Notes under the pieces: generated by a model
Told to the model about the DNA's origin: nothing
Database searches by the model: none
Seen by the model: the letters and a program-made list of their open reading frames with translations, nothing else
Program-made: the position numbers and the translations under genes
In this document: in pieces, positions 3,236-58,239 of the stretch
Layout: the number at the start of each line of letters is the position of its first letter
How positions within the stretch are numbered: position 1 is the stretch's first letter
Source: Trichonephila clavata
Taxonomy: Eukaryota
NCBI GenBank assembly: GCA_019973975.1
Contig: BMAO01019611.1
Coordinates: 76,564 to 134,802 of the forward strand
Direction of reading: 5' to 3'
DNA: 58,239 bases

Positions 3236-4060
3236 ATGGATGAGAATAATGAAATGGCCGTCGCGAATTCGAACGAGCAAAAATTTGAAGCTAATAAGGT
3301 AAGCCTGAAAATTCCTCCTTTTTGGGAAGAAAAGCCTGAAATATGGTTTTTCCAAGTTGATGCTCAGTTTTCTATTGCTAATATAAATCAAGAAGAAACT
3401 AAATTTAATTACCTTGTAGCTAGCTCAATTAGATCCAAAATTTATAGAAATATATGGGATATAATTCAAAGCAATGAGAAGAATAAATATTCTTGTGCTA
3501 AAAATAGACTTTTGAGTGCTTTTAAAGAAAGTGAAGAAAAAGGCATTAAAAAATTGCTTACTGGAATTTCATTAGGGGACATGAAACCCAGTCAACTTTT
3601 GAGGAAAATGAAATCGTTGGCTGGAGATAGTATCACAGAAAAAGTTTTAAGGACTTTATGGCTAGATAAATTACCGGACTCCATCAAAAATATTTTAGTT
3701 GTTAGTTTGGAAAATTTAGAAAATTTGTCCGTTATGGCAGATAAAATTTTTGAAATAAATTCATCGCCAGAAATTTATTCTGCTACTGCAGATAATTCTG
3801 CTATGAAAAATATTCTTGAAAAAGTAAGCCTTTTGGAAAAACAGATTTCAGAATTATACATCAACAGAAGAAAATCAAGAAGCGAATTTAGAAATTCCAG
3901 TCAAACACGAAATAAAAGTCGAAGTCGATCTCGAAAACGCTTCGACCCCAAAGGAAAATATTGCTATTTTCACTTCCATTTCGGTGCGCGATGCAAATCT
4001 GAAAAATGCAGTCCGCCTTGTGCATGGAATAGAAATACGGAAAACTTCAGTCTGCAGTAA
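3236..4060 (+). CDS. Gag-like capsid/nucleocapsid protein of the LTR element. It has a basic RS/KR-rich tail and a Cys/His cluster.
   Basis: ATG at 3236, 23 nt after the PBS. The C-terminus reads RRKSRSEFRNSSQTRNKSRSRSRKRF…CYFHFHFGARCKSEKC. Confidence 0.65.
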   Translation: MDENNEMAVANSNEQKFEANKVSLKIPPFWEEKPEIWFFQVDAQFSIANINQEETKFNYLVASSIRSKIYRNIWDIIQSNEKNKYSCAKNRLLSAFKESEEKGIKKLLTGISLGDMKPSQLLRKMKSLAGDSITEKVLRTLWLDKLPDSIKNILVVSLENLENLSVMADKIFEINSSPEIYSATADNSAMKNILEKVSLLEKQISELYINRRKSRSEFRNSSQTRNKSRSRSRKRFDPKGKYCYFHFHFGARCKSEKCSPPCAWNRNTENFSLQ

Positions 4061-4140
4061 ATATTGCGACAAATTCTGCTGCAGAACATTAAAAAGCCTG
4101 TCGCAAATTTCGATTATTCGTTAAAGATCGAACGACAAAT

Positions 4141-4677
4141 TTGCACTTCCTGGTAGATAGTGGAGCTGATTGTTCAATAATACCAGCCACATCTAAAAAT
4201 AAACAATCATCTGATTATAAATTATTTGCAGCAAATGGGACAGAAATTCCAACCAATGGAATTAAAGTGCTAAAGATTGATTTGGGACTCCGCAGAGAAT
4301 TTTTATTTCCATTTATTATTGCAAGAGTTAGTAAAGGAATCTTGGGAGCTGATTTTCTACACAAATTTAATTTATTGATTGATATCAACAAAAGAAGATT
4401 AATTGATGGAATAACACAACTCAGTATTCCGGGTGAAATTTTCTCCATCACAAATGATCTTAATGTTACAACTTTAAATAAAGGTGAGAAATTTTCTAAT
4501 TTACTTTTACAATATTCTGAATTAACTAAGCCTAATATTCTACCTACTCAAGTGAAATACGATGTCAAACATTTAATAGAAACAAAAGGTCAACCAATTC
4601 ATTCTAAAGCACGACAACTTGATCCTAAACGTCTAGCAATAGCTAAGGAAGAATTTAAATTTATGCTTGATAATTAA
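4141..4677 (+). CDS. Retroviral-type aspartic protease (pol, -1 frame relative to gag)
   Basis: LVDSGAD active-site motif. There is no ATG, since the TTG 'start' is an ORF-finder artefact. It is expressed by frameshift or readthrough. Confidence 0.7.
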   Translation: MHFLVDSGADCSIIPATSKNKQSSDYKLFAANGTEIPTNGIKVLKIDLGLRREFLFPFIIARVSKGILGADFLHKFNLLIDINKRRLIDGITQLSIPGEIFSITNDLNVTTLNKGEKFSNLLLQYSELTKPNILPTQVKYDVKHLIETKGQPIHSKARQLDPKRLAIAKEEFKFMLDN

Positions 4678-4679
4678 GT

Positions 4680-5806
4680 TATTCGTCCATCTAGCTCACA
4701 ATGGGCGATTCCATTGCATCTTGTAACCAAGAAAGATGGAACATTCCGTCCATGTGGAGACTATAGACAACTTAATGCTCAAACATTTCCTGATAGATAC
4801 CCAATACCACGAATAGAAGATTTCCACCATATTTTAAAAAAACACTACAATATTTTCTAAGATAGATTTAATTAAAGCCTATTATCAAATACCTATCGCA
4901 GAAGAAGATAAATGCAAAACTGCAATTATAACACCTTTTGGTCTATACGAATTTAACGTAATGAGTGTTGGCTTAAAAAATGCTCCTGCCACATTCCAAA
5001 GATTCGTACATGAAGTTTTTAGAGGATTAGATTTTGCATTCCCTTATTTAGACGATATTCTTATTGTGTCAACTAATGAAATGCAACATGAAGATCATTT
5101 AAAAATAGTTTTTGAACATTTAAACACTTATGGATTAAAAATAAATATTTACCAATCTGTGTTTGGAGTTGAAGAAATTGAATTTCTAGAATATCTTATT
5201 TCGAAAGAAGGTTCTAAGCCTCTCCCAGAAAAAGTCAAAGCCATTACAAATTATAAAAAACCAGAAACTCTACATAATCTTCGTATTTTCCTCGAAATGA
5301 TAAATTTCTACAGAAGATACTTAAAAGATGCGGCGAAAAACCAAGCCTTATTACACGATTATTTAAAAGGAGCCAAAAAAAGAGACAAGAGAAAAATACA
5401 GTGGACAGAAGAAGCCGAAAAACAGTTCGAAAATTGTAAAAATGACTTGAGCAATACAGCACTGTTATCATTTCCAAATCCCGATTTACCTCTTGCATTA
5501 TTCACAGATGCTAGTGATACTGCTATAGGTTCAGTTCTACAACAATTTGAAAATGATACATGGAAGCCAATTGGATTTTATTCAAAAAAACTAAACCCTA
5601 CACAACAAAATTATAGCACATACGATCGTGAACTTCTAGGTATTTATCTTTCCATTAAATATTTTAAACATTTGCTAGAAGGAAGAAAATTTACAGTATA
5701 TACAGATCACAAGCCTTTAACCTACGCATTTTTACAAAAACCTGATAAAGCATCCCAAGGCAACTACGACAACTTCAATACATTTCTGAATTTACAACAA
5801 ATATAA
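4680..5806 (+). pseudogene. Reverse transcriptase + RNase H of the LTR element, with one frameshift near 4850-4960
   Basis: RT motifs [13 protein letters not shown]…[11 protein letters not shown]…[13 protein letters not shown] (frame 3), then FAFPYLDDILIVS (YLDD box) and TDASDTAIGSVL…YSTYDRELL (RNase H) in frame 2. A poly-A run at ~4838-4848 shifts the frame. Confidence 0.75.
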
Positions 5807-7202
5807 CTTATATTAAAGGAGAAGATAATATAGTTGCAGATGCATTTTCAAGAATCGAAACAGTTACAATAATCGACTATGATGCAATAGCAGATGAACA
5901 AATCCAAGATATAGAATTGCAACAGTTAATGAAGAGTAACTCTTCTATAAAATTCAAGTCATGCACATTACCATCAGGTAAAACACTCTGGTGTGATATT
6001 TCCACACCAATATAAGACCCTACATTCCAAAACAGTTTCAGCAACAAATATTTCAACAAATTCATGGTTTTTCACACCCTGGAATTAGATCAACTATTAA
6101 ACTAATGACTGAAAAATTTATCTGGCCAAATATGAAAAAAGAAATAAGATTATGGGCAAGAACATGTATTCCCTGTCAAAAATGTAAAGTCCACAGACAT
6201 ACTAAATCAAAATTTGGAGAATATGAAGTACCTGATGCTAGATTTAGTGTGATACACATTGATTTAATTGGTCCACTTCCACCATCGCAAGGCATGACAT
6301 TTTGTATGACCTGTATTGACCGTTTTTCGTGTTGGATGGAAGCAGTTCCCTTGCCTGATTGTAAAGCAGAGACAGCTAGCAAAGCCTTTTATGAACACTG
6401 GGTTTGCAGATTTGGAGTACCTGTGAAAATAATTACAGATCAAGGAAGGCAATTTGAATCCCAGTTGTTCAGAAGTTTAGCTGCTATTTGTGGAGCTAAA
6501 GTAGCTCATACAACTTCCTATCACCCTCAATGCAATGGGAAAGTGGAAAGGTTACATAGGACCTTAAAAGGGGCAATCAAAGCTCATAACAACATCAAAT
6601 GGACACAGACTTTACCAACGGTATTGTTAGGATTACGATCGGCTCTACGTGGTGACACAAATTACACCATTGCACAAATGGTTTATGGACAAACTATCCG
6701 ATTACCAGGAGAATTTTTCGAGAAACCGAAAAACATCTTGGATACAGATACGTTTGCGGAAGAATTACAGAAACAAATGGATCAGTTACAACCACTGAAA
6801 ACTCGCCGACAACCTTCTCAAAAACACTTTGTCCATAAAGACTTGCATACCAGTACACACGTGTTCATTCGCGTCGACAGAGTAAATAAACCACTTGAAA
6901 CTCCTTACGATGGACCGTTCCTAGTGGCTAAAAGATACGACAAATATTTTACTGTGACAATTAAAGGCAAGGACATCAATATATCTGTAGACAGATTAAA
7001 ACCTGCATATTTGTTGTTAACTGATGGTGATAATCCTGATCATCTCAAACAATCAGAACATGCACCAACCCTGCCCGACAAAAAACTGATTGTGCAGACA
7101 AAAATTGAAAAACAGCCACCAGATTTGCTGGAAAAAGGTGTCCAAAAAACAACTACACGCTCTGGTAGACACATAACGTTTCCATCCCGTTACAGAAATT
7201 AG
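5790..7202 (+). CDS. Integrase (HHCC zinc finger, DDE core, GPF module). The N-terminal linker TNITYIKGEDNIVADAFSR is in frame 3 before a stop/shift, and the ATG ORF is 6105-7202.
   Basis: HGFSHPG…H…CIPCQKCK (HHCC); IHIDLIGPL / ITDQGRQF (D,D); YDGPFLV (GPY/F-type motif typical of Ty3/gypsy IN). Confidence 0.8.
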
Positions 7203-26099: not shown

Positions 26100-28111
26100 T
26101 CTGCATACATGTTAATGTTAGTAAGGGAGTAATTAGGGATGTCATTAATGTATAAGTTAAACAGCAGGAGGCCTAAGAGTGATCCTTGAGGACACCCTGC
26201 GGAGATATTATGAGAATTTGAAAGAGTTTCATTGATTCGGATTTTAAAGGAGCGGTTAATAAGATAGAAGTGAATTAGATGAATGAAGGGGGGGGGGAGA
26301 TCATATGTTTATAGCTTTAATGTGAGACCAAAAATCCAAAAATGGTCGAACGCTTTCTGTATATCCAGAAAAACGACTCCCGTGCTTTTCTCTTTCTGGA
26401 AACCTTCAGAAATATTTACGGTTAGTCGAAGGAGGGGGTGTAGAGTAGAGAGTTAGTTAGTAAATCCATATTGGTTAGGGTTAAGAAGGTTTTTATCATT
26501 GATGAAGGTTTTAAGTCTATTAAGGATGATGGATTCGGTTAGTTTGCTTAGAGTGGAGAGGAGAGAGATTGGTTTATAACTATCAGGAAGATTAGCATTT
26601 TTACCGGATTTATGAATTGGAAAAATTGCTTCTTTCCAATTATTTGGAAAGTGATTAAGTTTTAGTATTTTATTCATTAGAATGGTTAGGATTAGGATAA
26701 GTTTAAAAGGAAAGTATTTAAGCATTTTATTGGTGATTCCGTTCTTGCCGGGGGCTTTTTTGGAGTTAACACGTTTAATATAATCAATAATTTCGTCCGG
26801 CAAAGCGGGCTCTGGGTGGAAGGGGGGGGGAGGAAGTTAATTACAGTAGTGATAATCTCATCATCGTTGTTGTTAAAGTCATCATTAGTATGGTTATTTT
26901 CAACAAAGTTATTTTTAATGGTTTTAGCAAGTAGATTAGCTTTTTGCAGATCAGTGACGACCATTCCCGATAAGCAGTTAAGAAGTGGCATTTTGTGACG
27001 TTTGTTTTTTAGAAATCTCTGCGCCTCTGGGAGGCGAAGAGATTTCTTCTAATTTAAGGGCTTCTAATTTTTTATTCCAGGTTTCGTTACTGTAATTTTT
27101 AGGCTCTTTTTTAAAGATTACTTTGTGCTCTGTTGTAGTAAGTTTTAAAAATTGGATTAAGAGTTTGATGGTATTGCTTGCGAAACTTATTTTTCTGTTT
27201 GATTAGATTTATGATGTGCGGTGGTGTAAAGTTCCGACGGTTGTTTCCTATTGGCTGGGAGGCGTGGCTATGCGAGTCGAGGATCGCCTCGGTGAATCCT
27301 GTGATTTTTATTTCAAGATCGTTAGTAGTATTAATATTATTAGGGTAGAAATTGAAAAGAGAAGTTTCTATTTAGGTTGTTTCTGAAATCGTTCCAATTA
27401 GTATGCACAGCTCTTGGGTTTGGGGGTCCGGTTTGAAGTCTGAAGTTAAAAGTTAGAAATACAGGATTATGATCAGAAGAGAGGTCATGCAAAGATTTGA
27501 TTGTGAAGGGGTAGTAGGAATTTCTGATTAGAGCGAAGTCAATGGTGTTAGCAGTTATGGCCAATACTAGTGGGAGAGTCAGAAAAAGCAATATTGAGAT
27601 TTAAAATTTTGGCAAAGTTAAACAGACGAATACCTCTACTAGAATTTATTCTACAGCGCCAGGCACTGTGGGTGGCATTAAACTCGTCGAAGACGACGCA
27701 GTTGCTGCTGGTTTGAATCAGATTTTCAAGGTCAATAGAAAAAGTGTATTTGTCAGATGAAGGGGAAACATAAATGAAAACAATAGAGATAGGATCATGG
27801 TTAGGGGTGTTAGGATAATATTAGTAGCTTTACAGCTTGTAGAGGGGAGAGGAGAGACAGTAATGTTTGAGAGAATTTTTAACGAAAATCAGAGTTCCAC
27901 CGGAGGCCTGTCCGTCTGTGATCCGATCATTTCTGTAGCAACAGTAGTTGGCAATGTTAAAGTTATTAGCTGGTCTCAAGTGGGTTTCTTGAATAAGAAA
28001 TAGGTTGGGGGAGTGTTTCTCTATGAAAATTCGCAATTCAACATTGCATCTTAGCAGACCGTTTGCGATCCATGAACACAAACTGAGACCTACGGGGGGT
28101 TGTCTATGCAT
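26100..28111 (-). pseudogene. LINE ORF2 fragment: AP-endonuclease domain plus N-terminal half of reverse transcriptase
   Basis: APE motifs in 27340-27591 and 27830-28111. RT motifs in 26453-26803 and 26130-26330. The frame changes at ~26800, and the sequence terminates after YADD (~26130). Confidence 0.75.
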
Positions 28112-28488: not shown

Positions 28489-29796
28489 TTAGGTTATTGT
28501 AAATGTTAGTATAAGAATTTCTATTATTTTAGCGGCGCCCTTAGGGGGCTTGGGGAAGCAGGGGCAACCTTTCCAGTTGGCTATATGGCCGTAGATTTGA
28601 CAATTAATACAGTAAGGGGTCTCTAGCCGTTGTTTAATGGGGCAATCTCTGGTAATGTGATCATCGCCACATTTTAAGCAACGAGGGGTCATATGGCAGT
28701 TTTCTGCGCTGTGGGAGGAAGGTATTACATGTGTAAAATTGTGTTACACCTCTTCCATCGTAACCTTCTACCCTGACGCGGAAGTAGTTAAGATTTTTCA
28801 GATCAAATATTTTAGCATTGGTGAAGTTTCTGGGGAGAGTTATCAAGAACACTGGTAAAGCTTAGTTGGTCCTACGACCTATGAGCCTGGTTGACCTTTT
28901 CAGGTGTGAAACCAAGTTCTTTCAGGTCAGCTTTAATTTCTACAGGCTTCGTTACTTTGGGTAGACCTTTGATTACTACTTTAATGGGCCGTTCGCTTTT
29001 GGGTTTAATCACAACAAATTGATATTTAAGATTTTCTAAGAGTTTAAGTAAGTCGCGGTGCTGATCAAAATCGTCAGCATAGAGTTTAAGAAGATCGCCT
29101 GTTAGGCGCATTCTGAGCTTGGGGTAGTGGGCTGTTAAAGTTTTTACAGGACTCCTGTAGGTGTCAGTAATTTTAAGCATTACAGGAGGGGGCAGTGTGT
29201 TCGCGGATAGAGTTACCTTCGGGACCGATGCGGTGGCGTCGTCGGGAATCTAGGGGCGTTAGACTTAGGTGCTTAAGAATCTGGATTTTCTTGAGAGCAA
29301 TTGGCGAGAGCCGAATATCTATTCGGAGAAAGCTGTACTGCAAAAGCAGAAAGTTGATTGAAGAGACTTCTTTTTCTTGTTTTCCTAGGGAGTTCAAATT
29401 CATTAACGTTAACGTTTAGAGTTGTTTCTTGGATTAATTTTACTAGGAGAAACTGCAGGCGAGTTTTTTGGGGTAGAAATTGGAAGTTTTAGCAGGGGCT
29501 AGGTCTTGAAAAGGGAAGCCAGGCGTAGTACAAACAGGGACGGAGTCAAAATCACTCACCGCTATTGTCAGGGAGTTTTCAATGTTCTGGAGTTCATCCA
29601 TAGCATTCTGGTAAGAGTGATCATTTTCATGGTCAGGGTAGGACTTCAGATCTTCGACGATAGCTAGCTTGTGCTTCTTGATGCGCTGCATTCGCTCCAG
29701 TTGAGTCTTTGCGTAGGCTTGTTGCTCGTATAGGGATCGTTGAAGAGGAGTGGTTGGTGATTGTTCCATGTCCGAGAAATCAGGTTGAGAGGCCAT
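28489..29796 (-). pseudogene. LINE ORF1 (nucleic-acid-binding protein with a CCHC zinc knuckle), split over three ORFs
   Basis: Minus-strand ORFs 29443-29796, 28872-29180 and 28489-28692. CCHC: C-X2-C-X4-H-X4-C twice in MTPRCLKCGDDHITRDCPIKQRLETPYCINCQIYGHIANWKGC. Confidence 0.65.

Positions 29797-30472: not shown

Positions 30473-30500
<28 letters not shown>
30470..30500. repeat. (TA)n microsatellite
   Basis: tatatatatatatatatatatata read directly. Confidence 0.95.
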
Positions 30501-30505
<5 letters not shown>

Positions 30506-32647
30506 TCAAGAGCCAAAACATTATGACCACCCCTACATTTTGCAATGAACTCGCCTGGATGACGTGGAAGGCACGCGATCAGGTGGAAGTGGTATTTAAC
30601 TGCTGCTGGAGAGTCTGAAGAATCATTCTTTCACTTACTTATGTGTGTGACGGGAAAGGCTGCGGATCTAAGCGACTTTGATAGAGGGCAGATTGTGTAA
30701 TGGCTCGGAACAAGTATTTCCGAAACTGCACGACTCATGGGTTGTTCGCGATCTGCACTTGTTAGTACAATAGAAGTCCGATAATCCGGCACGTTCGGGA
30801 CCGGCTCGGTGCCGGACTACCGAAAATTCCGGTCTATCGGGCGGTAATTATAAGAACAATTAGGTTAATAATTAAACTACAAATACAGTATGCAAATACA
30901 TACAACAAAGTTTATTTTACATTTCATATAATATATGTACACGTACTGTTTCATCAGCATTGTAAATCTGTTCAGGTGTTAAATCATTATCAGCCACGAT
31001 TTTCTCAAACTCGTCTTTGTATTTTTCTGCAGAGTTTGGTTTGCTGAAAGTGCTTCTCCAGTTACATCAAGTCTTCGAATTCCATGCCGAAACTTAAAGT
31101 TTCTGAGCCAACCATCAGAATAATTACATTCACTTTCAGCCAACTCCTAAATCTTGGCGGAATTTCTTTGCCTTTTCAACAATCATTGGCCCTGTTACCA
31201 ACTTTCCTTCAGAACGTAATGCACTAAACCATTTGAACAATACACTATCTACCTGTTCCAGTTTTGGTTTTTTTAATGTTTGTCTAGAAGCCAATTTTTC
31301 AGTTGTTACCGATTGAGAAGCAAACTTCATTAGTTCATCTTTTTGTTTTTTAATGTCATAAATAGTTGATGAGCCAATATTAAACTTATCCATTAAAACA
31401 TTTCAATTCTCGCCTTTTTCTAGCCGTTTGATGATTTCTAGTTTCTGATTGAGAGTCAGTGTTACGTGTTTTCGTTTCTCTCCTTTTGAACTCGAAGGCT
31501 TAGGTTTTGAAAACATGGTCACTGTACAGTTAGAACGAAAATCACTTTTTTTATAAACAGTTTCAAAAGTTACGTTTACTGCGATGTGAAAGGACACAAA
31601 ACAACAACGCACAAAAAAATGGCGAAGACGCTTCGTGATTGATTAACGGAGCTGCACTGCACATGAATTTGTTGTGACAGCTGAGACTAGCCGGCCGATA
31701 ATTGTTTCCGAACACTACCGAGCGCTTCCGGATGATCCCGAACTACCCCGAAAACTTCCGAGTAGCTCTCGAGCGTTTTTATTTGCTTTAAAGACACACT
31801 TTTGGAGAAAACCAAAATTTTTACAATTTTCCGGAGCGATGCCGGACTATCGGGCATTCCGGACTGTTGGATGCCGGACTAATGGGCTTCTACTGTACTT
31901 ATGCAAAGTGGATGAATGACGGTGAAGCCAGCAGTAGACGACATGGTGTTGGACGTCCACACGCTATCAAAGAAAAAGGTCGCCTGAGACTGTCTCGCAT
32001 GGTGAAGCAAAACCGGAGCCAGACAGTGGCTCAGTGGGAGAGAGTTGCCTGGTCAGATGAATCACGGTTTGTCATTCATCACGCCGATGGATACGCCGTC
32101 TTCCAGGCGAACAGTTGCTCCCTCAATATACAGTAGGTCATACACAGGCCGGTGGTGGAGGTATTATGCTTTGGAGGACGTTCTCTTGGGCGTCTCAAGA
32201 ACCCGTGGTTGTGGTAGAGCAGATCATGAATGCTACAGGGTATTTGAACATTATTGCGGACCAGTTGCACCCTTACATGGCCTTTTTTTCCAGCTGGAAA
32301 TGGAATCTTCCAACTGGACAACACCCCGTGTCACAAGGCTAAAATTGTGTTGGAGGGGGTTCCAGGAACATGATGCTGAATTCCAGTTAATGTCCTGGCC
32401 GCCTATCTCACCAGATCTCAATCCGATTGAACACATTCGGGATGTCATGGGACGGCAGCTCAGAGTTCAAAGACCACCAATTCACAGTATCTCGGATTTG
32501 CATGACCGTTGTTTAAACATCTGGTACAATCTGCCTCCGGCCATCTACCAAGGACTTGTGATATCCATGCCAAGGCGGGTTGAAGCTATGTTGCGCGCCA
32601 ACTCGTTATTGACAGGTGTTCATAATGTTTTGGCTCTTGAGTGTATA
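30499..32647 (+). mobile_element. Tc1-like DNA transposon with 33-bp terminal inverted repeats, a decayed transposase and a nested insertion
   Basis: TIRs TACACACTCAAGAGCCAAAACATTATGACCACC (30499-30532) and GGTGTTCATAATGTTTTGGCTCTTGAGTGTATA (32615-32647). Transposase pieces: KAADLSDFDRGQIV (HTH, 30650-30780), YAKWMNDGEASSRRHGVGRP…WSDESRF (31890-32100), GGGIMLW…, QLDNTPCHKAK, WPPISPDLNPIEHIRDV…(32045-32662). The left end lies in a (TA)n tract. Confidence 0.8.
30784..31879 (-). mobile_element. pogo/Tigger-like non-autonomous element (deletion derivative retaining only the N-terminal CENP-B/psq-type HTH region) inserted into the Tc1 element at a TA
   Basis: TA at 30782-83 and 31880-81 flank ATCCGGCAC… / …GTGCCGGAC-like inverted termini. 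The ends carry repeated GCCGGACTA(T/C)CG motifs. Minus-strand ORFs 31403-31612 (…KGEKRKHVTLTLNQKLEIIKRLEKGEN) and 31136-31393 (MDKFNIGSSTIYDIKKQKDELMKF…) are typical of the pogo transposase N-terminus. There is no DDE domain. Confidence 0.6.
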
Positions 32648-40708: not shown

Positions 40709-41367
40709 TCACAAAGTTTTTTCCTTGGTATGAATCTGTAAATGTTTTTCTAAGCAATGATTTTGTGAAAAACCTTTTTTACACATTTGACAAACATAAG
40801 GCTTTTCATTTGTGTGAATGTGTAAATGTGTTTTTAAATTAGCACTTCGAGAAAAAGACTTTTTGCATATTCCACAAACATGAGGCTTTTCTGCAGTATG
40901 TATCAATAAATGCATTTTTAAATTACTACTTCGAGAAAAAGACTTGTTGCATATTTCACAAACATAAGGCCTTTCTTTTGTATGAATACGTAAATGATTT
41001 TTCAAATCAGAATTATATCAGAGAAACACTTATTGCACATTTCACAAACATAAGGTCTCTCCTTTGTATGAATACGTAAATGTCTAATTAAATCACAACT
41101 AACATAGAAAGACTTATTGCATATTTCACAAATGAAAGGCTTTTCTTTGGTATGAATCAATAAATGTCTTTTTAAATGACATTTTTGAGAGAAACCCTTG
41201 TTGCAGCTTATACAAACATGAGGCTTTTCCTTTGTGTGAATACGTAAATGTACTATTAAGTTACTTCTTTGAGAGAATGACTTGTTGCATGTTTCACAAA
41301 CATGAGGCGTTTTATTGCCATGAACCTTGAAATGACACCTTGAGTTATCATATAAAGTGAAAGCCAT
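40709..41367 (-). pseudogene. C2H2 zinc-finger gene copy 1 (7 fingers), disrupted by a 2-bp insertion/frameshift at ~41003-41020. It also has a small deletion at the N-terminus relative to its paralogues.
   Basis: Minus ORFs 41002-41373 and 40709-41005 are both strings of …[16 protein letters not shown]…H…IH fingers. AATTATATCAGAG here versus AATTATCAGAG in the paralogue at 47870. Confidence 0.7.
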
Positions 41368-42890
41368 TTTCACTAAGATTTTTCACAGCTGTTTAAATAC
41401 ATAAGTCTATTTAAAATCCACAATAAAGAAAATGGGTCTTGCCGTCTTGAACAAAACAGGAGTTTATATTTAAGCCTTCTGTAAAAAAACAAAGTATTCT
41501 TCAGTATGATGTTGAAAATGTAATCAGAATTTTATTCTACATTTTAATTTATGAAAGAAAAAAACCAGCTGGGTATCACAGCTTCATAGAACTGGGTAAG
41601 AATTTTTCCCCTTATATTTGAAGAAATTATTTGGTTCTTTTAGATAGGATTTTTACTGAAATGATCAAAATCTAAAAAATATATATTAAATATTAGTTAC
41701 TACAAAAATATATTCAAGTACTACTTTAGAACTATGATCAGGTTAACACAAGCAAAATGACAAGAAATTATAAGAATATCAGGATAAAATGAAAATACCT
41801 TCTTGAAGAAGAATTCAAAGAGGATATGCATTGTGTAATGGTACAAAAAAACAAGGAAAATTATAAAATTGGAAAGAAAAAAAAACACTGTAAGGCCTAT
41901 ATTTTACCTGTTTGACTTTTGATCTCAATTATGGTTCAAATTACAATTAACAAAAGCTACTTGCAATATACAACCTAATTTTTAACAATGTAACAATATC
42001 ATGGGAGAAGATGTTTGAAATTAGAAAAAGATACTCTTTGTAATCTTTTGATTTACACTTTTTTTATGAAAAGAAAATTTTACACCAGAAATTATGCAAG
42101 AATTAGACTACTCTCCTACCATGGTAACACAAAAGATATATACTCATACTTTATAACTGAAGAAACTTAAGAATAACTTTATTGAAAGAATGGGCTGGAT
42201 CCTAGCTGAGCACACTTCATGGCGACAAAATTTTTGTGATAAAAGTTTACAATATGGTAAGCCTGCAAAATTTAGGAAATAGTAACCCTATTCGGACTGC
42301 ATTTTTTCAGTTTTTCCTGATTTGGACAGCAGTCCTTTTTTTCCTGACGGTCAACTTGAAGACGTGTAAGATTTTTCTAGAAAGCTAAAATTGAAAGAAT
42401 GAGTGGATTTTTTTTCTTTTTTTTAAAAAAAATGAAACAACTGCTGAAAGAATCTTTGTTAGACAGAAAAGGAGATGTGTTGATAAATCCAATTTGGACG
42501 ATGGTTTTTCTCACTATTGCATCTTGCAAGCACTGGTTTTTCTGTTTCTTCTTGAAGCCATTATGGAAACCACGTTAATGTTTTGAAAAAAAAAAAACTT
42601 CTTCCTTAAAATATTACGAATAAAATGTCAAACTATATGAAAAAGACTTATTAAAAAACTTACATATAAGGTTTTCCAGTTGTTATTAAAGTTGAAACAA
42701 AAGAAATCCTACATTCTTCAAAATATTCCACAGCTCACATTTTTCTTTGGTTTAAAAGTAACATGTGTATGAAAGAAATGTCTCGAGAGAAAGAAATGCT
42801 GCATCTTTCCCAAACATGACTTTTCCTTTCTATGTACATGTAAATATGTAATTTAAATTACTGGCTTTGGAAAATGCCTAGTAACACATC

Positions 42891-43715
42891 TCACAAAGTT
42901 TTTTCCTTGGTATGAATCCGTAAATGTTTTTTTAAGCTATTACTATGTGAAAAACTTTTTTTACACATTTGACAAACATAAGGCTTTTCCTTTGTGTGAA
43001 TACGTAAATGTCTTTTTAAATCAACAGCTTGGGAAAACCCCTTGCTACACATTTCACAAATGTGGGGCTTTTCTTTGGTATGAATCAATGAATGTCTTGC
43101 TAAATGACCACTTCGAGAAAAAGAATTGTTGCATATTTCACAAACATAAGGCTTTTCTTTTGTATGAATACGTAAATGTCTTTTTAAACCAACAGCTTGA
43201 GAAAAACTCTTGCTGCATATTTCACAAACATAAGGCTTTTCCTTTGTATGAATGCGTATATGTCTTTTTAAATCCCAACTAACATAGAAAGACTTATTGC
43301 AGAATTCACAAACATAAGGCTTTTCCTTGGTATGAATCTTCAAATGTTTTTTCAAAGAACCAGTATGATTAAAACACTTATTGCACACTTCACAAATGTA
43401 AGGCTTTTCATTGGTATGAATCGATACATGTTTTTTTAAATCACAAAATGCTGAAAAACCCAGGTTGCAGCTTTCACAAACATGAGGCTTTTCTTTTGTA
43501 TGAATATATAAATGTTGTTTTAAATTACCAGCCTGAGAAAAACCCTTGTTGCATATTTCACAAATGTAAGGCTTTTCATTGGTATGAATCAATAAATGTC
43601 TTTCTAAATGACTTTTTTTAGGGAAAGACTTGTTGCATATCTCACAAACATGAGGCTTCTTATTGACATGAACCTGCAAATGACACCTTGAGTTATCATA
43701 TAAAGAGAAAGCCAT
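42891..43715 (-). CDS. C2H2 zinc-finger protein, ~9 tandem fingers with HTKEKPY linkers. This is the intact copy, with ATG at 43715 (the listed 43745 start is GTG).
   Basis: [83 protein letters not shown]… ending …[12 protein letters not shown] candidate 3' splice acceptor (TCTTACAG) lies 14 nt upstream of the ATG on the coding strand. Confidence 0.8.
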   Translation of the reverse strand: MAFSLYDNSRCHLQVHVNKKPHVCEICNKSFPKKSHLERHLLIHTNEKPYICEICNKGFSQAGNLKQHLYIHTKEKPHVCESCNLGFSAFCDLKKHVSIHTNEKPYICEVCNKCFNHTGSLKKHLKIHTKEKPYVCEFCNKSFYVSWDLKRHIRIHTKEKPYVCEICSKSFSQAVGLKRHLRIHTKEKPYVCEICNNSFSRSGHLARHSLIHTKEKPHICEMCSKGFSQAVDLKRHLRIHTKEKPYVCQMCKKSFSHSNSLKKHLRIHTKEKTL

Positions 43716-45587
43716 TTTACCAATTTTCACTGTAAGATTTTCCACAGATAAGTCTAGTTAAAATCCACAATAAAGAAATGGATCTTGCAGTCTTGAACAG
43801 AATAGGAGTTTTTATTCAATCCTTCTATAAAAAAACAAAAAATATTTTTCAGTAAAATGTTGAAAATGCAATCAGAATTTTATTCTACATTTCAATTAAT
43901 GAAAGAAAAAAATTAGCTGGGTATCAGATTTTTAAAGAATTCGGTAAGAGAACTCCCCCCCCCCTTATATTCGAAGAAATTGGTTGGCTTTTAGACAGGA
44001 CTTTTACTGAAATGATTAAAATCAAAAAAATATATATGAAATATTAGTTACTGAAAATATATTCAAATACTACTTTAGAACAATGCTCAGGTTAACATAA
44101 GCAAAATGACAAGAAATTATAAGAATATCATGATAAAATGAGAATACCTTCTCCCGAGAATTCAAAGAGGATATGCATTGTGTAATGGTACAAAAAAACA
44201 AGGAAAATTATAAAATTGGAAAAGAAAAAAAAAAGCACTGTAAGGCCTATATTTTATCTGTTAGACTTTTGATCTCAATTACGGTTCAGATTACAAGTGA
44301 CAAAAGCTACTGGCAATATACAACACAATTTTTAACAATAAATCACAATATCATTGGAGAAGATTTTTGAAATTAGAAAAAGATACTCTTTGTAATCTTT
44401 TGATTTACACTTTTTTTATGAAAAGAAAATTTTACACCAGAAATTATGCAAGAATTAGACTACTCTCCTAGCATGGTAACACAAAAGATATATACTCATA
44501 CTTTATAACTGAAGAAACTTAAGAATAACTTTATTGAAAGAATGGGCTGGATCCTAGCTGGGCACACTTCTTGGGGACAAAATTTTTGGTGATAAAAGTT
44601 TACAATATGGTAACCCTGCAAAATATAGGGAATAGTAACCCTATTCAGACTGGATTTTTTTAGTTTTTCCTGATTTGGACAGCAGTCATTTTTTTCCCTG
44701 ACGATCAACTTGAAGACGTGCAAGATTTTTCTAGAAGGCTAAAATTGAAGGAATGAGTGGATTTTTTTTCTTTTTTTAAAAAATGAAACAACTGCTGAAA
44801 GAATCTTTGTTAGACAGAAAAGGAGACATGTTGATAAATTCAATTTGGACGATGGTTTTTCTCACTATTGCATCTTACAAGCACCGGTTTTTCTGTTTTC
44901 TTCTTGAAGCCATTATGTAAGCCACATTTTCTTTTTTGAAGCTCAGCAAATGGATATATTTTCTTTTGAATGAAAGATGTAAGAAAGAAATGCTTGCTTT
45001 TTGAATGAGTAAACAATTGAAAATACTTCGGTAAGAATAGATGTCCAAAATATGAAAATAATTTGTTTTTGAGAGAAATGGAGATCGTTATTTCATCAGC
45101 CTAAGGCATTCATATTGGACCCCCCCCCCCCACTGTAGCGTTTTAGAAGCATTGCTTGTTCAGTTTTTCTTGTTGAAGTTGTTTTAGAAACCACATTTTC
45201 TTCATAAAAACACGACAGATGTATTTTTTTTAAATAAAAGATAAGGAATTAATGATTGTTTTTTGTACGAATGAAAGATTGATAGAATCTTGTAATAGAT
45301 GACCGAAATTTGCATTTAATTTCTTATTTTTAATTTTATGTTCCCTATGTGTCCGTCTTAGAAACCACATTTTTCGTCTCTTGATGCCACTTTGAAAACC
45401 ACATCTTCATCTCTGACACAATTTTGAAAAATGAATTTTTTTACTTGACGCCATTTAGCGAAAAACTTTTGTCGCTAAATACAGCAACGTGCTGCGCTAG
45501 GATTTTACCAAAGAATGAATAGGACCTATTAGCTAATTTATCTTGGATACAATTTCATAAGAGCCTTTGTTTCTTATGTTGCATGAC

Positions 45588-45694
45588 ATGCAGTGGTGTA
45601 ACAGAGAATATTAGGGCCCCCTGCAAAGTCAGGTTTTGGGCCAATCTAGAACCCTGGCCTCCCCCATGATGTGGGGCTATACGTTACACCACTG
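45588..45694. mobile_element. 107-bp MITE-like element with perfect 12-bp TIRs CAGTGGTGTAAC…GTTACACCACTG and an internal GGGCCCCC palindrome. It belongs to the same GGGCCCC-rich family as the 12122-12287 MITE, and degenerate relatives lie at 13023-13075 and 12730-12790.
   Basis: TIRs read directly. No TSD was recognisable. Confidence 0.45.
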
Positions 45695-45721
45695 GTGTCC
45701 AGCATCCTGTAGCCCTGTGTA

Positions 45722-46035
45722 AACCCTGCTATGTAGAAGAGACAATGCACGGTAAATCTATAAAAGCTAAAAGATTTCAAGTTCTGAGAATTGGGTGAGA
45801 GCTCAACTATTGCCCTTGTTACCTATTGTGGTTCAAAATTATAAGGTGCATTTGAAATAGTTCTTGTCTTGATTCAAAGTGTGATGTACATAAGTAGTCA
45901 AGAAAATCCAGGAAATAAAGTATGTTATTGGATCATTCTAGTCTTATTTGGGATACAAGGGTAATTTTAGCAAAAATAATAGAAATTTTCACGAACATTT
46001 TTTTAAGCTTCACTTTATAGCACTGATAAAAAAAA
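45722..46035. repeat. Dispersed ~310-bp repeat, with a second copy at 49746-50060
   Basis: …CCATGTAGAAGAGACAATGCA…CAAGTTCTGAGAATTGGGTGAGAG…GTGGTTCAAAATTA(T/C)AAGGT…GATTCAAAGTGTGATGTACATAAG…CCAGGAAAT(A/G)AAGTATGTTATTGGATCATT…TTATTTGGGATA… is shared by both copies. Confidence 0.75.
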
Positions 46036-47299
46036 ACCACTTTATGTAATGCAGTAAAAGGTCATGGTCCCTGTAATTATAATTAAGCTGAAATGATAAA
46101 TAAAATTCCTCACTATATCCAAACCAGGAAAGGTAAACTTCATTTAATAAGCAACATACCCATTTCTGGAATTGTAACTCAATTTAAAAATTTTGTTGCT
46201 ATTAACATTTAAAAAGATTCCCCATGTTATATAACTATCAATATTCCTTTGAAGTAGCCTTGAAAGAAAACCCTCTTATAATAAGAAATAATGAATTTCT
46301 GTAATAAAAAAAGTTTTAACATAACCATTATGCATCATCACACTGAAAGTACACCCACAAATTTTAGACTTAAATTTCAAATAAATTTTTTGGGGGAGGA
46401 GGGGGGGGTATAGATCACTATACATCAACTATACTCACAATTACACTTATTTTTTCTTTAATGTAACATGAGAATATTACATATAACTGTACAGTATACT
46501 TAAAAATACATCAATATTTCACTTTTTTTATGCTTTTCACTTAGTATAGATTCATAATCAAATAAAGAATATATTTATTTTCACCCTTTTACTCTAAGAT
46601 AATGTTAATGCTTTGAAGAAAAAAAACATATCTTTCTTAAAATATTGCGAATAAAATGTCAAACTATATGAAAACTTACAATATGGTAACCCTGCAAAAT
46701 TTAGGGAATAGTAACCCTATTCGGACTGGATTTTTTCAGTTTTTCCTGATTTGGACAGCAGTCTTTTTTCCCCCTGACGGTTAACTTGAAGACATGTAAG
46801 ATTTTTCTAGAAAGCTAAAATTGAAGGAATGAGTGGATTTTTTTTCTTTTTTTTAAAAAAATGAAACAACTGCTGAAAGAATCTTTGTTAGACAGAAAAG
46901 GAGATGTGTTGATAAATTCAATTTGGACGATGGTTTTTCTCACTTATTGCATCTTACAAGCACCGTTTTTTCTGTTTTCTTCTTGAAGCCATTATGGAAA
47001 CCACGTTAATGTTTCGAGAAAAAAAAACATGTCTTTCTTAAAATATTACGAATAAAATGTCAAACTATAAAAAAAGACTTATGAAAAAACCTATATATAA
47101 GGTTTTCCAGTTGTTATTAAAGTTGAAACAAAAGAAATCCTACATTCTTCAAAATATTCCACAGCTTACATTTTTCTTTGGTTTAAAAGTAACATGTGTA
47201 TGAAAGAAATGTCTCGAGAGAAAGCAATGCTGCATCTTTCCCAAACATGACTTTTCCTTCCTATGTATATATAAATATATAATTTAAATTACTGGCTTT

Positions 47300-48732
47300 G
47301 GAAAATGCCTAGTAGCACATCTCTCAAAGTTTTTTCCTTGGTATGAATCCGTAAATGTTTTTTTAAGCTATTACTATGTGAAAAACTTTTTTTACACATT
47401 TGACAAACTTAAGGCTTTTCCTTTGTATGAATACATTAATGGCTTTTTAAATCAGAATTATCAGAGAAAGACTTATTGCAGATTTCACAAACATAAGGCT
47501 TTTCCTTTGTATGAATCTTCAAATGTTTTTTCAAAGAACCAGTATGATTAAAACACTTATTGCACACTTCACAAATGTAGGGCTTTTCATTGGTATGAAT
47601 CGATATGTTTTTTTAAACCACAAAATGCAGAAAAACCCAGGTTGCAGCTTTCACAAACATGAGGCTTTTCTTTTGTATGAATATATAAATGTTGTTTTAA
47701 ATTACCAGCCTGAGAAAAACCCTTGTTGCATATTTCACAAATGTAAGGCTTTTCATTGGTATGAATCAATAAATGTCTTGCTAAATTACCACTTCGAGAA
47801 AAAGACTTGTTGCATATTTCACAAACATAAGGCTTTTCTTTTGTATGAATACGTAAATGTTTTTTCAAATCAGAATTATCAGAGAAACACTTATTGCACA
47901 TTTCACAAACATAAGGCCTCTCCTTTGTATGAATACGTAAATGTCTTCTTAAATCCCAACTAACATAGAAAGACTTATTGCATATTTTACAAACATAAAT
48001 CTTTTCCTTGGTATGAATCTTCAAATGTTTTTTCAAAGAACTAGTATGATTAAAACACTTATTGCACACTTCACAAATGTAAGGCCTTTCATTGGTATGA
48101 ATCAATATATGTTTTTTTAAATGAGAAAATGCAGAAAAACACTGGTTGCAGCTTTCACAAACATGAGGCTTTTCTTTTGTATGAATATATAAATGTTGTT
48201 TTAAATTACCAGCCTGAGAAAAACCCTTGTTGCATACTTCACAAATGTAAGGCTTTTCATAGGTATGAATCAATAAATGTTTTGCTAAATGACCACTTCG
48301 AGAAAAAGACTTGTTGCATATTTCGCAAACATAAGGCTTTTCCTTCGTATGAATCTTCAAATGTTTTTTCAAAGAACTAGTATGATTAAAACACTTACTG
48401 CACACTTCACAAATGTAAGGCCTTTCATTGGTATGAATCAATATATGTTTCTTTAAATGAGAAAATGCAGAAAAACCCTGGTTGCAGCTTTCACAAACAT
48501 GAGGCTTTTCTTTTGTATGAATATATAAATGTTGTTTTAAATTACCAGCCTGAGAAAAACCCTTGTTGCATATTTCACAAATGTAAGGCTTTTCATTGGT
48601 ATGAATCAATAAATGTCTTTCTAAATGACTTTTTCTAGGGAAAGACTTGTTGCATATCTCACAAACATGAGGCTTTTTATTGACATGAACCTGCAAATGA
48701 CACCTTGAGTTATCATATAAAGAGAAAGCCAT
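47300..48732 (-). pseudogene. C2H2 zinc-finger gene copy 3 (13 fingers up to 47587, then a 2-bp deletion frameshift; 3 more finger-coding repeats and an in-frame stop downstream). It is either truncated or a pseudogene.
   Basis: ORF 47587-48786 (GTG start; ATG at 48732) ends …KKHIDSYQ*, where the paralogue reads [16 protein letters not shown] versus ATACATG at ~47600. The downstream frame carries DLKSH* at ~47450. Confidence 0.7.
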
Positions 48733-49745
48733 TTTACCAATTTTCACTGAAGATTTTCCACAGATAAGTCTAGTTAAAATCCACAATAAAGAAATGGATC
48801 TTGCAGTCTTGAACAGAATAGGAGTTTTTATTCAATCCTTCTATAAAAAACAGAAAGTATTTTTCAGTAAAATGTTGAAAGTTGTAATCAAAATATTATT
48901 CTACATTTCAATTAATGAAAGAAAAAAATTAGCTGGGTATCAGATTTTTAAAGAATTCGGTAAGAGAATTCCCCCCCCCCCTATATTTGAAGAAATTGGT
49001 TGGCTTTCAGACAAGACTTTTACTTAAATGATTAAAATCAAAAAAATATATATGAAATATTAGTTACTAAAAATATATTCAAGTAATACTTTAGTACTAG
49101 GATCAGATTAACCTAAGCAATGACAGGAAACTAAAGGAATATCATGATAAAATAAGAATACCCTTTTTGAGAATTCAAAGAGGACATGCATTGTGTAATT
49201 GTGCAAAAAAACCATAAAAAATTATAAAATAAACATTGCAATGCCTATATTTTAACTGCTTGATAATTGGTGTCAATTACAGTTAAGATTATAATTAACA
49301 AGAAAGCTATTTGTGTAATAGACAACACAATTTTTAACAATATATCACAATATTATGGGAGAAAATCTTTGAAACTGCAAAAAAATTTTCAGCAAAGGGA
49401 TTTTTAAATTTTTCTAGAAGTATTCTAGGAAAGTTTCTTTTCTAGTAGTATCTTTTTAAATTTAGAAAAAAGAAATTTTTTTCTTTTTTTATAAATTTAA
49501 AAAGATACTCTCCACAATACTTTGATATACACTTCTTTTTATACAAAGAAAATTTTACACAAGAATTAGACTGTTCTGCAGGCAAGGTAACACAAAAGAA
49601 ATATACTGATATTTTATAACTGAACAAACTTAACAATAACCTTATTAAAGCAATGAATAGGCTGTAGTAGAGGTCTTTGACACAATTGCATGAAAGTCAT
49701 TGTTAATGCTGCTACGCTTCCTGGATCCTGTATTAACTAAAAACC

Positions 49746-53699: not shown

Positions 53700-55922
53700 A
53701 GACTGAAATGAATGTACATACCACAGACTTAATCTGCTCATTTTGTGATCTAGACTTCACTCGCTCTTTCTGTTTGAAAAGGCATTTGAAAAATGTTCAT
53801 GCTCACCAACAGGGTGATTTAAATGAAGGGATTTTGAAGGAATTCAATACTTTCAGTGGTTTATATTGTTGCATTGTAAAATTTAGTTTATAAATTTACA
53901 CTGTAATAGTATGAATTTTATACATTTACGTATTAATGTTTTCTATTAAAGTTCGCGTAATTTTATATTAATAAATGTAAACTTTCTTTTAATTAACATT
54001 ATAGAATTTGTTACATGGAAAGAAAAAGAAAACAAGACCATGTCAAAATATGTTAGACAACGAGGAAGTAAAACACTTAAAAATGGAGACATAGTGATGA
54101 ATTATCACTGTTGTCGAAGTGGGACATACAAACCAAAAGGAAAAGGTGTCAAGAGTTTAAAGTCACAAGGCTCTGTTAAAATTGGAATTAGTTGCCCAGC
54201 AATAATAAAAGTTAGACAGTACTGAAAATGTAGTAGTGCAATATTTTCCGAATCATAAGAATCAGTTAGAGCACTTAGGGTTATCAGAGTCTGATAGGGC
54301 AGCTGTTGCTGGTATAGTATTTTATTTATGTAGTTTTATTATTCTTAGTTTTATTATTAGTTACTATTGTTAGTTTTGTTTATTTATTTTTCAGGACGAT
54401 TAAAAGAAGGTGTTAGTGAAAAAAAATTCTGCAGGATATTAGAGAAGAAATTACTGTTGACAGTGGCAGAAAGATGCTTATTGAAAAAAAGGATATCCAT
54501 AATATTAAAAGGGACTTCAATATTAATGGTTATATTAAAAGGCATGAAGTTGATGCAGTGAGTGTCAAGCTATGGACACAAGAAATGAAAAATAATGGAG
54601 AAAATTGTATTGTTTTTTTCAAAGAGCAGAGACAATCAGAGAATGACTATGGATTGAAAGATGAAGATTTTGTCCTCATAATCATGACAGATTTTCAGAA
54701 AAAAAATGATTACAAAATATGGAAAGGACAAAATTTGTATAGATGGAACACATGGGCTAAACAGCTATGATTTTAATTTATACTCAGTTGTGGTAGTCGA
54801 TGAACATAAGAATGGAATACCTGTGGCATTTTGTTTTTCCAACAAAAGTTCTGAAGATGTATTCAGAATTTATTTTAGTGCTATTAAAAATGCTGTGGGT
54901 ATAATTGAAACTACAACATTTATGACTGATGATGCTCCAGCATTTTATAATGCTTGGAGTTATGTGATGGGCACAGTTAAAAATGTCTTATTGTGTGCTT
55001 GGCACGTTACAAGAAATTGGCACCAAAATTTAAATAAATTAAAAATCCTGAAAAGAGAAAAATTGTTAATAAAGCATTAAAGGCATGAAAGAGGAACTAT
55101 GTTTAGAAACATTTTCTAAACTTATGAAGCAATTCATACAAGAATTGTTAAATGACTCGGACACTTGTGAATTCGGAAAATATTTCCAACAGAATTATGC
55201 TAAGAGACCAGAAAAATGGGCCTATTGCTACAGGAAGGGTCTGGGCATAAATACAAACATGTATTTGGAGTCCCAATAAAAAAATTAAATATCATTATTT
55301 TGAGGGAAAGCATGTCAAGAGACTAGACATTGCAATCAATGGTCTTTTAAAACTGGTTAGAGACTTAATATTTCAATGCCTAATAAAAATTACAAAAAGA
55401 ACCATTTCCTCTGATAAACTATCAAAAATTGTCAATAGCCACAGATTAGGCCTAGAGATTCAAAGCAATAAAATTGAAAAATTAGCAGATAGCGAGTGGA
55501 AAATTGAATCCAATCATTCTAACTACCTAATATGCAAGAAAGAAGAAGAATGCCATAGATTATGTAATATAAAATGTACTGCCTGCAAAATTTGTATCCA
55601 TTCCTATACATGCTCTTGTGTAGACAATTTAATAAGAGGAAATATTTGCAAGCACATTCATAAAGTTGCCAAAATGTTTTTAAATGATACACATAATGAA
55701 GAAATACAAGAGATTTATGTAAATCAAAATGATATTTTAAAAGAAATATTCGATGTTTTACCATGTAGCTCCAAATCTGCTAATAATGATGGTCATGAAT
55801 CCAAAAAAAGAAAAATTGAAAGCATTCTTGCTCTTTTTGATGAATACGAGCTTACACTAGAAGAAAGTAAAATTCATAGGAACCTAGATAGTATATTTTT
55901 CATTTTTTGTTACTTAAAATGA
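53700..55922 (+). pseudogene. MULE (Mutator-like) transposase: N-terminal C2H2/FAR1-WRKY-like DNA-binding region, MULE catalytic domain and SWIM zinc finger. It is spread over 4 frames (≥3 frameshifts), and the sequence is otherwise well preserved.
   Basis: LICSFCDLDFTRSFCLKRHLKNVH. YHCCRSGTYKPKGKG…GSVKIGISCPAII. DGTHGLNSYDFNLYSVVVVDEHKNGIPVAFCFSNK…FMTDDAPAFYNAWSYVMG…LLCAWHVTRNW (MULE domain). WAYCYRKGLGINTNMYLES. SWIM: CTACKICIHSYTCSCVDNLIRGNICKHIHKV. Confidence 0.75.
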
Positions 55923-56430: not shown

Positions 56431-58239
56431 TTATGGATTATCAAGTCTCTTGGTTTGTTTCAAAAGTCTTCCATAACGAGAACGGAGCACTCCTTGCACC
56501 TCAGGGATTTGATCTTGATCGAGGCAAGAACCATTCTCTACATCTCTTTCTGTTGATGACAAAGAGTCAGCTGTAGTCACTTCTAGCGGATAGAGTTTCT
56601 GAATTGGTCTCATAACACTTCCAAATTGTGTTTTCACTTCCGCTACACGCACTCTTCCATCTTTTCCTTTACACATCCTTGTGACTTTACCTAGAGGCCA
56701 GTTGATTCTTTTGTTGTTGGTATCACCAATTAGAACGAGATCACCTTCTTTAATGAACGACTCTCTTTTAACTTTTGAATAATCTTTCAATATCCCTAGA
56801 TACTCATTTCTGAAGCGGTTTCGCAGATCTTGACGCAATTTCAGCCTATAAGCACACCTCTTGTTCAATCTTTTTCAATCTATCATGTCCAGATCTGGAA
56901 CACCAACCTCTCTAATTTCCTGGAGAAACATAGATGGTGTAAGTGCTGATAGTTCATCAGGATCCTCTGAGTGGTATGTTAAGGGGCGAGAATTAATTAA
57001 ACTCTCTGCGTCGCATAACACAGTGACCAATTCTCCTTCGTTCAAACAAGCTCTCCCCAGAACTTTTCTCAAAATACTCTTCAATAATCCTATCAGCCTC
57101 TCCCAGAAGCCACCCCACCAGGGTGCAGCAGGAGGACTAAATTTCCAGGAAATTCTTTTTTCTGATGCAAAATTTTCGATTTTTTTTCCCAATTAATATT
57201 CTTTAAAAAATTGGCTGTGCCCACAAGATTCTTTCCTTTGTCAGAATAAACAGTGGAAGGACGTCCTCTTCTAGCTATGAACCGCCGAAGAGCCAGTATA
57301 AAGCATTCGGTGGACAAAGGTGACACCAGCTCTAAATGCACAGTTCGGTAAACAGCACAGGTGGCAAGCACTATCCAGCACTTTTTGTCAGTTTTTAGGA
57401 ACAAAGGTCCACATAGGTCAATGCCAGTAACTTCAAAGACAGCAGAATCCCTGACTCTGTCTTCTGGAAGAGGAATGCTCACGGCTTCCAATGGACGGGC
57501 AGAAAATCTTCTACACTTGGCGCATTTTCTTATCACGCCTCCCACTGTCTTTCTACTCTTAATTATCCAAAAGGATTCTCTGAGGCATGACATCAGTGTC
57601 TGAGTACCTGCATGTTCTAACTCTATGTGTTTGCTCATTATCAATTTTTCGACCATTTGATGCTTGTGGGGCAACAGTACTGGAAATCTAAAAGTCTGTA
57701 AATCTTTCCTCGATGCAATTCTAGTTTCAACTCGTAGGAGATCATCGTTGTCTTTCACAATTCGCAAGTTCAACTTCTCTCCTCCTGAAAAAACTTCTCT
57801 CTGTATTTCCTTCAAAATTACTTTTTCCGATGCTTTAATTTCGTCTGTTTCCAATTTTCCCTTTTTCCTGTCAATAGGGTTTCTTTTCACATTCTTACAA
57901 AATCGGATGACATATGCCATTATTCTTACGATTTTGTTAAAAGAAGATATTTTCTGAAAAAATGTAAATCTACAAAGGTCTAAAGCAGTAGTTGTGAGTA
58001 CAGTTCTTCTTCTCTCGGAAATGACTATTTCCATATCGGGCTTTATTTCACTAGCTGGCCATTCTTCATGGGGTAGTTTTAACCAGTCGGGTCCCTCCCA
58101 CCAATGGGATTTCAATAAGTCTTTAGGATTGCACCCCCTTGAGGGCAAATCTGCTGGATTAAATTTCCCTTGAATATGTCGCCAAGCTTCTGGATCCGTC
58201 AATTTCCGTATTTCATTGACTCTGTTAGTTATAAACGCA
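56431..58239 (-). mobile_element. 3' part of a BEL/Pao-type LTR retrotransposon pol (RNase H end + integrase). It continues beyond the window edge, and the internal region ends at ~56431.
   Basis: Minus ORFs: 57093-58202 (…NPADLPSRG…[47 protein letters not shown]…GIDLCGPL…). 56875-57192 (…[20 protein letters not shown]…). 56431-56868 (IN C-terminus). The pol frame is interrupted between these ORFs. Confidence 0.75.

Follow-up and report, generated by a model that had tools for sequence, protein, structure and literature searches.

The 58,239-nt window (the whole stretch that we analysed, positions 76,564 to 134,802 of contig BMAO01019611.1 in the assembly GCA_019973975.1 of the spider Trichonephila clavata) holds, between its positions 30499 and 32647, two DNA transposons, one of which lies inside the other. 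The outer, or host, element belongs to the Tc1/mariner superfamily and resembles the DD36E (Incomer) group, while the inner element, referred to here as the insert, is a shortened pogo/Tigger-like transposon lying in the opposite orientation. Each of the two occurs once in the window. We regard the locus as very probably a two-layer transposon fossil, in which a deleted pogo/Tigger-like element sits inside a decayed DD36E, Incomer-like Tc1/mariner element. The pair is delimited by the following terminal inverted repeats (TIRs) as well as target-site duplications (TSDs), given in window positions:

30499-30500: left TA TSD of the host element, formed by the final repeat of a (TA)14 microsatellite
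30501-32645, plus strand: host element, Tc1/mariner superfamily, DD36E/Incomer-like, assigned by a Pfam DDE_3 match, by similarity to the transposase P0036 and by comparison with the T. clavipes copies L007 and L008
30501-30531, plus strand: left TIR of the host element, 31 nt
32615-32645, minus strand: right TIR of the host element, 31 nt
32646-32647: right TA TSD of the host element
30766-30767: left TA TSD of the insert, placed by the empty sites in L007 and L008
30768-31895, minus strand (gene strand): insert, an internally deleted pogo/Tigger-like element of 1128 bp, placed by alignment to its relatives
31872-31895, minus strand: 5′ TIR of the insert, CAGTAGAAGCCCATTAGTCCGGCA when read along the gene
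30768-30791, plus strand: 3′ TIR of the insert, CAATAGAAGTCCGATAATCCGGCA, mutated here at the third base, related copies reading CAGTAG
31896-31897: right TA TSD of the insert, placed by the empty sites and by related copies

An earlier model-made description of this stretch, which we call the sequence-only reading, had proposed a transposon within a transposon, inserted at a TA. This was borne out by L007 and L008, two paralogues of the host from Trichonephila clavipes that are uninterrupted at the corresponding site. Both read GTTAG-TA-CTTATGC with a single TA at the insertion point and hence represent empty sites of a TA-duplicating insertion. The ends of the insert had each been set too far inward, by 16 bp (30784-31879); alignment with six related copies gave the true span of 30768-31895, and the TA/TA pair formerly taken for the TSD turned out to lie within the element's own TIRs, the real TA dinucleotides being those at 30766-30767 and 31896-31897. 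The relatives used for this alignment were reached via protein matches: L002 and L003 are from Araneus ventricosus, L001 is from Parasteatoda tepidariorum, L004, L005 and L006 are from two environmental or Logan assemblies, and L009 lies on a scaffold of Halyomorpha halys. Copies lacking a TA duplication, which had been named beforehand as evidence against the proposal, did not turn up: all seven copies of the insert family that we examined are flanked by TA, and all of them begin with CAGTAGAAGTCC.

The TIRs of the insert family are 24 nt long, and the two ends match at 21 of 24 positions in the relatives and at 19 of 24 in the window copy. The first 12 nt are perfect in the relatives, and private mutations are present in both TIRs of the window copy. 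We spotted these TIRs by eye and confirmed them by comparison with the other copies; the automated repeat search had missed them, all of its 9-nt seeds being disrupted by point mutations. A scan of the metagenome contigs of the JGI for the TIR returned a single match (L010), a chance hit without homology to the element.

The left end of the host element adjoins the perfect (TA)14 microsatellite at 30473-30500, the final unit of which doubles as the TA TSD. The two 33-bp TIRs that the sequence-only reading had assigned to the host are a real repeat pair (30499-30531 and 32615-32647; 33 nt, 94% complementary, and found only as these two copies in the window), but according to the comparison with T. 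clavipes each arm consists of a 31-nt TIR plus the TA TSD, since L007 and L008 end likewise with TA followed by TACACTCAAGAGCC. Without the insert and one TA the host measures 1015 bp. Its DNA is 87-91% identical to the two T. clavipes copies, and its repaired plus-strand translation matches Pfam DDE_3 (2.1e-12) and shares 81% identity with the transposase P0036 (346 aa). Alignment to P0036 further revealed that about 60 codons are deleted between ...QTVAQ and WERVAWSDES. In addition, the start codon is mutated and the open reading frame (ORF) carries several frameshifts and one stop; the host copy is dead and non-autonomous. The full-length relatives nearest to it (P0036, P0037 and P0043) have a spacing of 36 residues between the last D and the E, and the count in the window host is also 36, although the repaired translation crosses a frameshift at this place. 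As judged from these relatives, the host is closest to the DD36E Incomer-type transposases and not to the strict-sense DD34E Tc1 elements, which refines its previous designation as Tc1: membership in Tc1/mariner stands, the narrower assignment does not. DD36E/Incomer elements are described as about 1.2 kb long, with a transposase of about 346 aa, TIRs of 22-32 bp and a TA TSD, and have been found in nine species of Arachnida (PMC6875036). The relatives of our host share these properties (about 1.2 kb, with L008 at 1231 bp, a 346-aa transposase, TIRs of about 31 bp, a TA TSD and occurrence in Arachnida), whereas the window host itself is shortened to 1015 bp by deletion and frameshifted, and its spacing is taken from the relatives.

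The insert aligns with 95% DNA identity to a 2226-bp element of A. ventricosus (L003:841-3066), covering reference positions 1-948 and 2037-2226. Its repaired minus-strand translation contains the Pfam domains CENP-B_N (7.2e-15) and HTH_Tnp_Tc5 (5.2e-13), and its best protein matches are spider proteins annotated as 'Jerky', with 93% identity. These matches agree with the sequence-only reading in placing the insert in the pogo/Tigger group, with a helix-turn-helix (HTH) region of the CENP-B type encoded on the opposite strand. We assembled a family transposase of 549 aa from related proteins and translations; it contains CENP-B_N, HTH_Tnp_Tc5 and DDE_1 (1.9e-50) with DD32D spacing, and the DNA-binding region of the family consensus matches the solved DNA-binding domain of CENP-B (1HLV, E=2.1e-11). 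DDE_1 and the DDD triad are missing from the window copy itself, which is deleted after the first D (NADET), and the earlier statement that only the N-terminal, CENP-B-type DNA-binding region survives is correct. The insert is thus non-autonomous and descends from a member of the pogo superfamily.

Tigger elements, the source of the vertebrate JRK/Jerky genes, are the closest known parallel. They are typically about 2.5-2.8 kb long, encode about 492-537 aa and have TIRs of about 20 bp (PMC9219625), and their catalytic spacing ranges over DD29-36D, JRK itself being DD32D/E (PMC7386202). The insert family is similar to them in its TA TSD, in its TIRs, which measure about 24 nt and have CAGT as their first bases, in the length of its full-length relative (2.2 kb) and in the assembled transposase of about 549 aa with CENP-B_N, HTH_Tnp_Tc5, DDE_1 and DD32D. 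The window copy differs in that it has no catalytic domain and is a pseudogene.

What was removed from the insert can be read from the same alignment. The deletion comprises 1088 bp (reference positions 949-2036) and took away DDE_1 past the first catalytic Asp (...IYNADET) together with the C-terminal region and the native stop. Its junction is a further feature of the locus:

30946-30949, minus strand: deletion junction with 4-bp ACAG microhomology, where the two BLAST segments overlap by 4 bp

Other members of the family carry different deletions. L002 lacks reference positions 827-1191, and an independent TA-flanked derivative of 1088 bp, represented by L004:157-1244 (ENA assembly ERZ28655945) and L005 (Logan ERR14940907), lacks positions 860-2098 and carries filler DNA at its deletion junction; the protein sequence P0004 suggests yet another, in-frame internal deletion. 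These differing deletions point to sporadic deletion derivatives, which presumably arose by error-prone repair of cut-and-paste elements, through either abortive gap repair or slippage. The junction sequence of the window copy, GATGAAACAGTACGTGTACAT, had no match in the scanned JGI metagenome contigs, and neither the protein-database relatives nor those contigs yielded another copy that shares its breakpoint. The label 'MITE-like', with which the insert had been likened to a miniature inverted-repeat transposable element (MITE), consequently lacks support: with a length of 1128 bp and a recognizable ORF remnant the element is better described as a deletion derivative than as a MITE.

Both ends of the insert were retained, and each of them carries three copies of a 12-nt motif:

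31841-31884, minus strand: three co-oriented motifs of the CGATAGTCCGGC type (31873-31884, 31858-31869 and 31841-31852), the outermost within the TIR
30779-30839: three motifs at the other end, the terminal one (30779-30790) inverted and within the TIR

Counted from the respective terminus, the motifs of the 5′ end occupy positions 12-23, 27-38 and 44-55 and are all co-oriented, while those of the 3′ end occupy positions 12-23 (inverted) and, after a gap of 20 bp, positions 44-55 and 61-72. The latter two (30811-30822 and 30828-30839 in the window) have the opposite orientation and hence are direct relative to the other end. Allowing at most one mismatch, the motif GCCGGACTAYCG was observed three times against 0.01 expected by chance, and the array at the right end was also detected by Tandem Repeats Finder (TRF). 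A position-weight scan gave 7 matches against a shuffle mean of 1.05, a figure that is partly circular, the matrix having been built from the same sites. The motifs of the 5′ end are conserved in L002, L003, L004, L006 and L009, with L001 rearranged at that end, and the layout of the 3′ end is identical in the full-length L003 and visible in L009. The sequence-only reading had noted repeated motifs in direct orientation at both ends. The repeats themselves are real, but the terminal copies are inverted as part of the TIRs, and direct orientation between the two ends is confined to the subterminal copies; an end structure built entirely of direct repeats was accordingly rejected. Nor is the arrangement unusual, as had been thought, since it is present in full-length relatives and matches the layout published for Lemi1/Emigrant.

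In the Lemi1/Emigrant system of Arabidopsis, each TIR is accompanied by two subterminal copies of its inner half, and electrophoretic mobility shift assays (EMSA) showed that the transposase binds these motifs cooperatively (PMC1636448). The likeness extends to the asymmetry of the ends, with three near-contiguous, co-oriented motifs at one of them and a reversed subterminal pair set apart from the TIR at the other. The differences are that the Arabidopsis elements belong to another pogo family, with binding demonstrated there and inferred here, and that Emigrant is a high-copy MITE, whereas the window derivative is known as a single copy with its breakpoint. Drosophila pogo reportedly offers a second parallel (work attributed to Wang et al., 1999), which we took as an analogy for motifs that serve as binding sites. 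By analogy with both systems, the 12-nt motifs of the insert are putative binding sites for its transposase.

The remaining part of the transposase gene is represented by the following features:

30917-31516, minus strand: remnant transposase frame, a pseudogene, with its ATG at 31516-31514
about 31322-31477, minus strand: CENP-B_N in the remnant frame
about 31066-31258, minus strand: HTH_Tnp_Tc5 in the remnant frame
31403-31405, minus strand: premature TGA at codon 38, which is AGA (Arg) in most related copies
31140-31141, minus strand: +1 frameshift, GTTGGCTG, where GTT-GCTG is found in 6/6 related copies
31035-31038, minus strand: -1 frameshift, the A4 run of CCAAAACTC being cut to A3

From its native ATG the frame is open for only 37 codons. 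It would end with ...IYNADET, followed by nine codons derived from the junction and a TAA, and the longest ORF that remains in the insert has 85 aa and contains fragments of both HTH domains only. The insert had been described as protein-coding, which the TGA and the two frameshifts contradict.

These lesions also bear on the function that had been suggested for the insert, namely that of a protein-coding, MITE-like derivative whose HTH-only product binds the ends of its autonomous relatives and competes with or represses them. Truncated transposases do repress their own elements in other systems, the KP form of the P element being an established example, and the insert resembles KP-type deletion derivatives in that both ends are kept, the deletion occurred at a short stretch of microhomology and nothing of the gene was retained beyond its N-terminal DNA-binding part. 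The remnant does span the entire CENP-B_N plus HTH_Tnp_Tc5 region, and the similar-sized, TA-flanked derivative on L004 (1088 bp) possesses an intact ORF of 207 aa (P0002) that consists of the DNA-binding region only and includes both HTH domains. The window ORF, by contrast, is broken, so that no truncated protein is made: it stops at codon 38, before the first HTH is complete, and would then need a +1 and a -1 frameshift to be read through, while the 85-aa ORF holds only pieces of each domain. The stop and the two frameshifts leave the window copy unable to provide a competitor or repressor that binds DNA. Moreover, no copy with the same breakpoint was found, leaving no sign of MITE-like amplification, and the truncated proteins in the databases end at differing, unrelated points, which is a pattern of decay and not of selection. 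We therefore consider a repressor role of this copy very unlikely. At the level of the family the idea fares somewhat better but remains doubtful: HTH-only derivatives in araneoid spiders, equipped with six terminal motifs, may titrate or repress the autonomous element, with the window copy being a decayed relic of such derivatives in a family that appears to have moved between very distant arthropods.

Even less probable is that the nesting stems from a chimeric assembly, or from recombination between two unrelated elements, without any transposition. The surrounding region is very rich in transposable elements, and misassemblies do occur in such regions; however, the junctions coincide exactly with the family termini as set by six other copies from other genomes, the TA is duplicated at both of them, and excising the insert together with one TA recreates the continuous host sequence of the two paralogues. 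That the insert is no transposon at all and instead a fragment of a domesticated host gene of the CENP-B/Jerky type is hardly tenable, because the annotation of its database relatives as 'Jerky' or 'jerky protein homolog' is outweighed by the presence of TIRs and a TA TSD, by the disrupted ORF and by multiple near-identical copies at unrelated loci and in unrelated species, whereas the criteria for a domesticated gene include the absence of TIRs and an intact coding capacity (PMC4231638; PMC7386202).

For the two-layer fossil the following course of events is very probable. An element of about 1.2 kb of the DD36E (Incomer-like) Tc1/mariner type entered a TA in or beside the (TA)n microsatellite and decayed later. 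A Tigger/Jerky-like member of the pogo superfamily then moved by cut-and-paste into a TA of the N-terminal coding region of this host, duplicating the TA and taking up an orientation opposite to the host gene. Before or after this move, an internal deletion of 1088 bp at the 4-bp microhomology stripped the element, originally of the 2226-bp type, of its catalytic domain past the first D; with both ends kept, and three 12-nt motifs on each, it would have been mobilizable only in trans. Neutral decay has since broken the leftover DNA-binding ORF (R38 to stop, +1 and -1 frameshift) and mutated both TIRs. The insert is now without protein-coding function.

No evidence contradicting this structural reading was found, and three points should be weighed against it. 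The related copies were drawn from genomes other than the source genome. The divergence of about 4% between the window insert and the consensus of the other copies is a rough value, the alignment around the deletion being partly misaligned. Lastly, the placement of the insert with Tigger, within pogo, is suggested by the 'Jerky' names, the domain architecture and the DD32D spacing.

The locus thus comprises two dead DNA transposons, nested in an ordinary manner, and both superfamilies are already known. Its practical value lies in annotation, for which it provides the correct ends and TSDs and a family reference, both for a Tigger-like element that occurs in araneoid spiders and for the Incomer-type element hosting it; fragments of these elements make up many of the spider proteins labelled 'Jerky' or 'Tc1 transposase'. 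The broader significance is small, as arthropod genomes rich in repeats routinely contain DNA transposons that are nested and decayed.

The one lead of wider interest stands apart from the nesting and concerns the distribution of the insert family. The Halyomorpha halys scaffold ML750579.1 (L009:3496-5707) contains a TA-flanked, full-length but frameshifted copy, which is 94.4% identical at the DNA level to the A. ventricosus element L003:841-3066 over 2226 bp. Given this identity between a stink bug and a spider, either the element was recently transferred horizontally between arthropods that are only very distantly related, or an assembly is contaminated. Among vertebrates, the frog proteins P0009, P0011, P0012 and P0015 and the protein P0008 of the turtle Pelodiscus sinensis are 51-54% identical to the DNA-binding region of the insert-family transposase. 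Chimeric gene models could account for these matches, as could fusion of an exon of transposase origin to MRPL23.

The window as a whole has a GC content of 32% and is rich in transposable elements. A unit resembling a long terminal repeat (LTR) retrotransposon lies at 3236-7202 on the plus strand and has long open ORFs for gag-like, protease-like, reverse transcriptase (RT)/RNase H and integrase sequences; it may be a young element. An RVT_1 fragment is located at 26456-26803 (minus strand). Between 26001 and 30000 the GC skew is strongly positive (0.20-0.35), and the GC content rises to as much as 0.45 just upstream of the nested elements. In the same region, a 117-aa ORF at 29446-29796 (minus strand) has no Pfam domain and corresponds exactly to the T. 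clavata hypothetical protein GFR31637.1, of which a 121-aa paralogue exists; it probably belongs to another repeat. The exact match is in keeping with T. clavata, or a very close relative, as the probable source, while five further ORFs of the window lacked an exact counterpart. Farther downstream, at 41002-48786 on the minus strand, long ORFs with C2H2 zinc fingers (123, 284 and 399 aa) are clustered, and their near-identical N-terminal stretches make them look like tandemly duplicated zinc-finger (ZNF) genes or exons. A fragment with a MULE transposase domain (54706-55077, plus strand; 2.1e-12) and an ORF of 369 aa that contains an integrase zinc-binding domain (57096-58202, minus strand) are further remnants of transposable elements.

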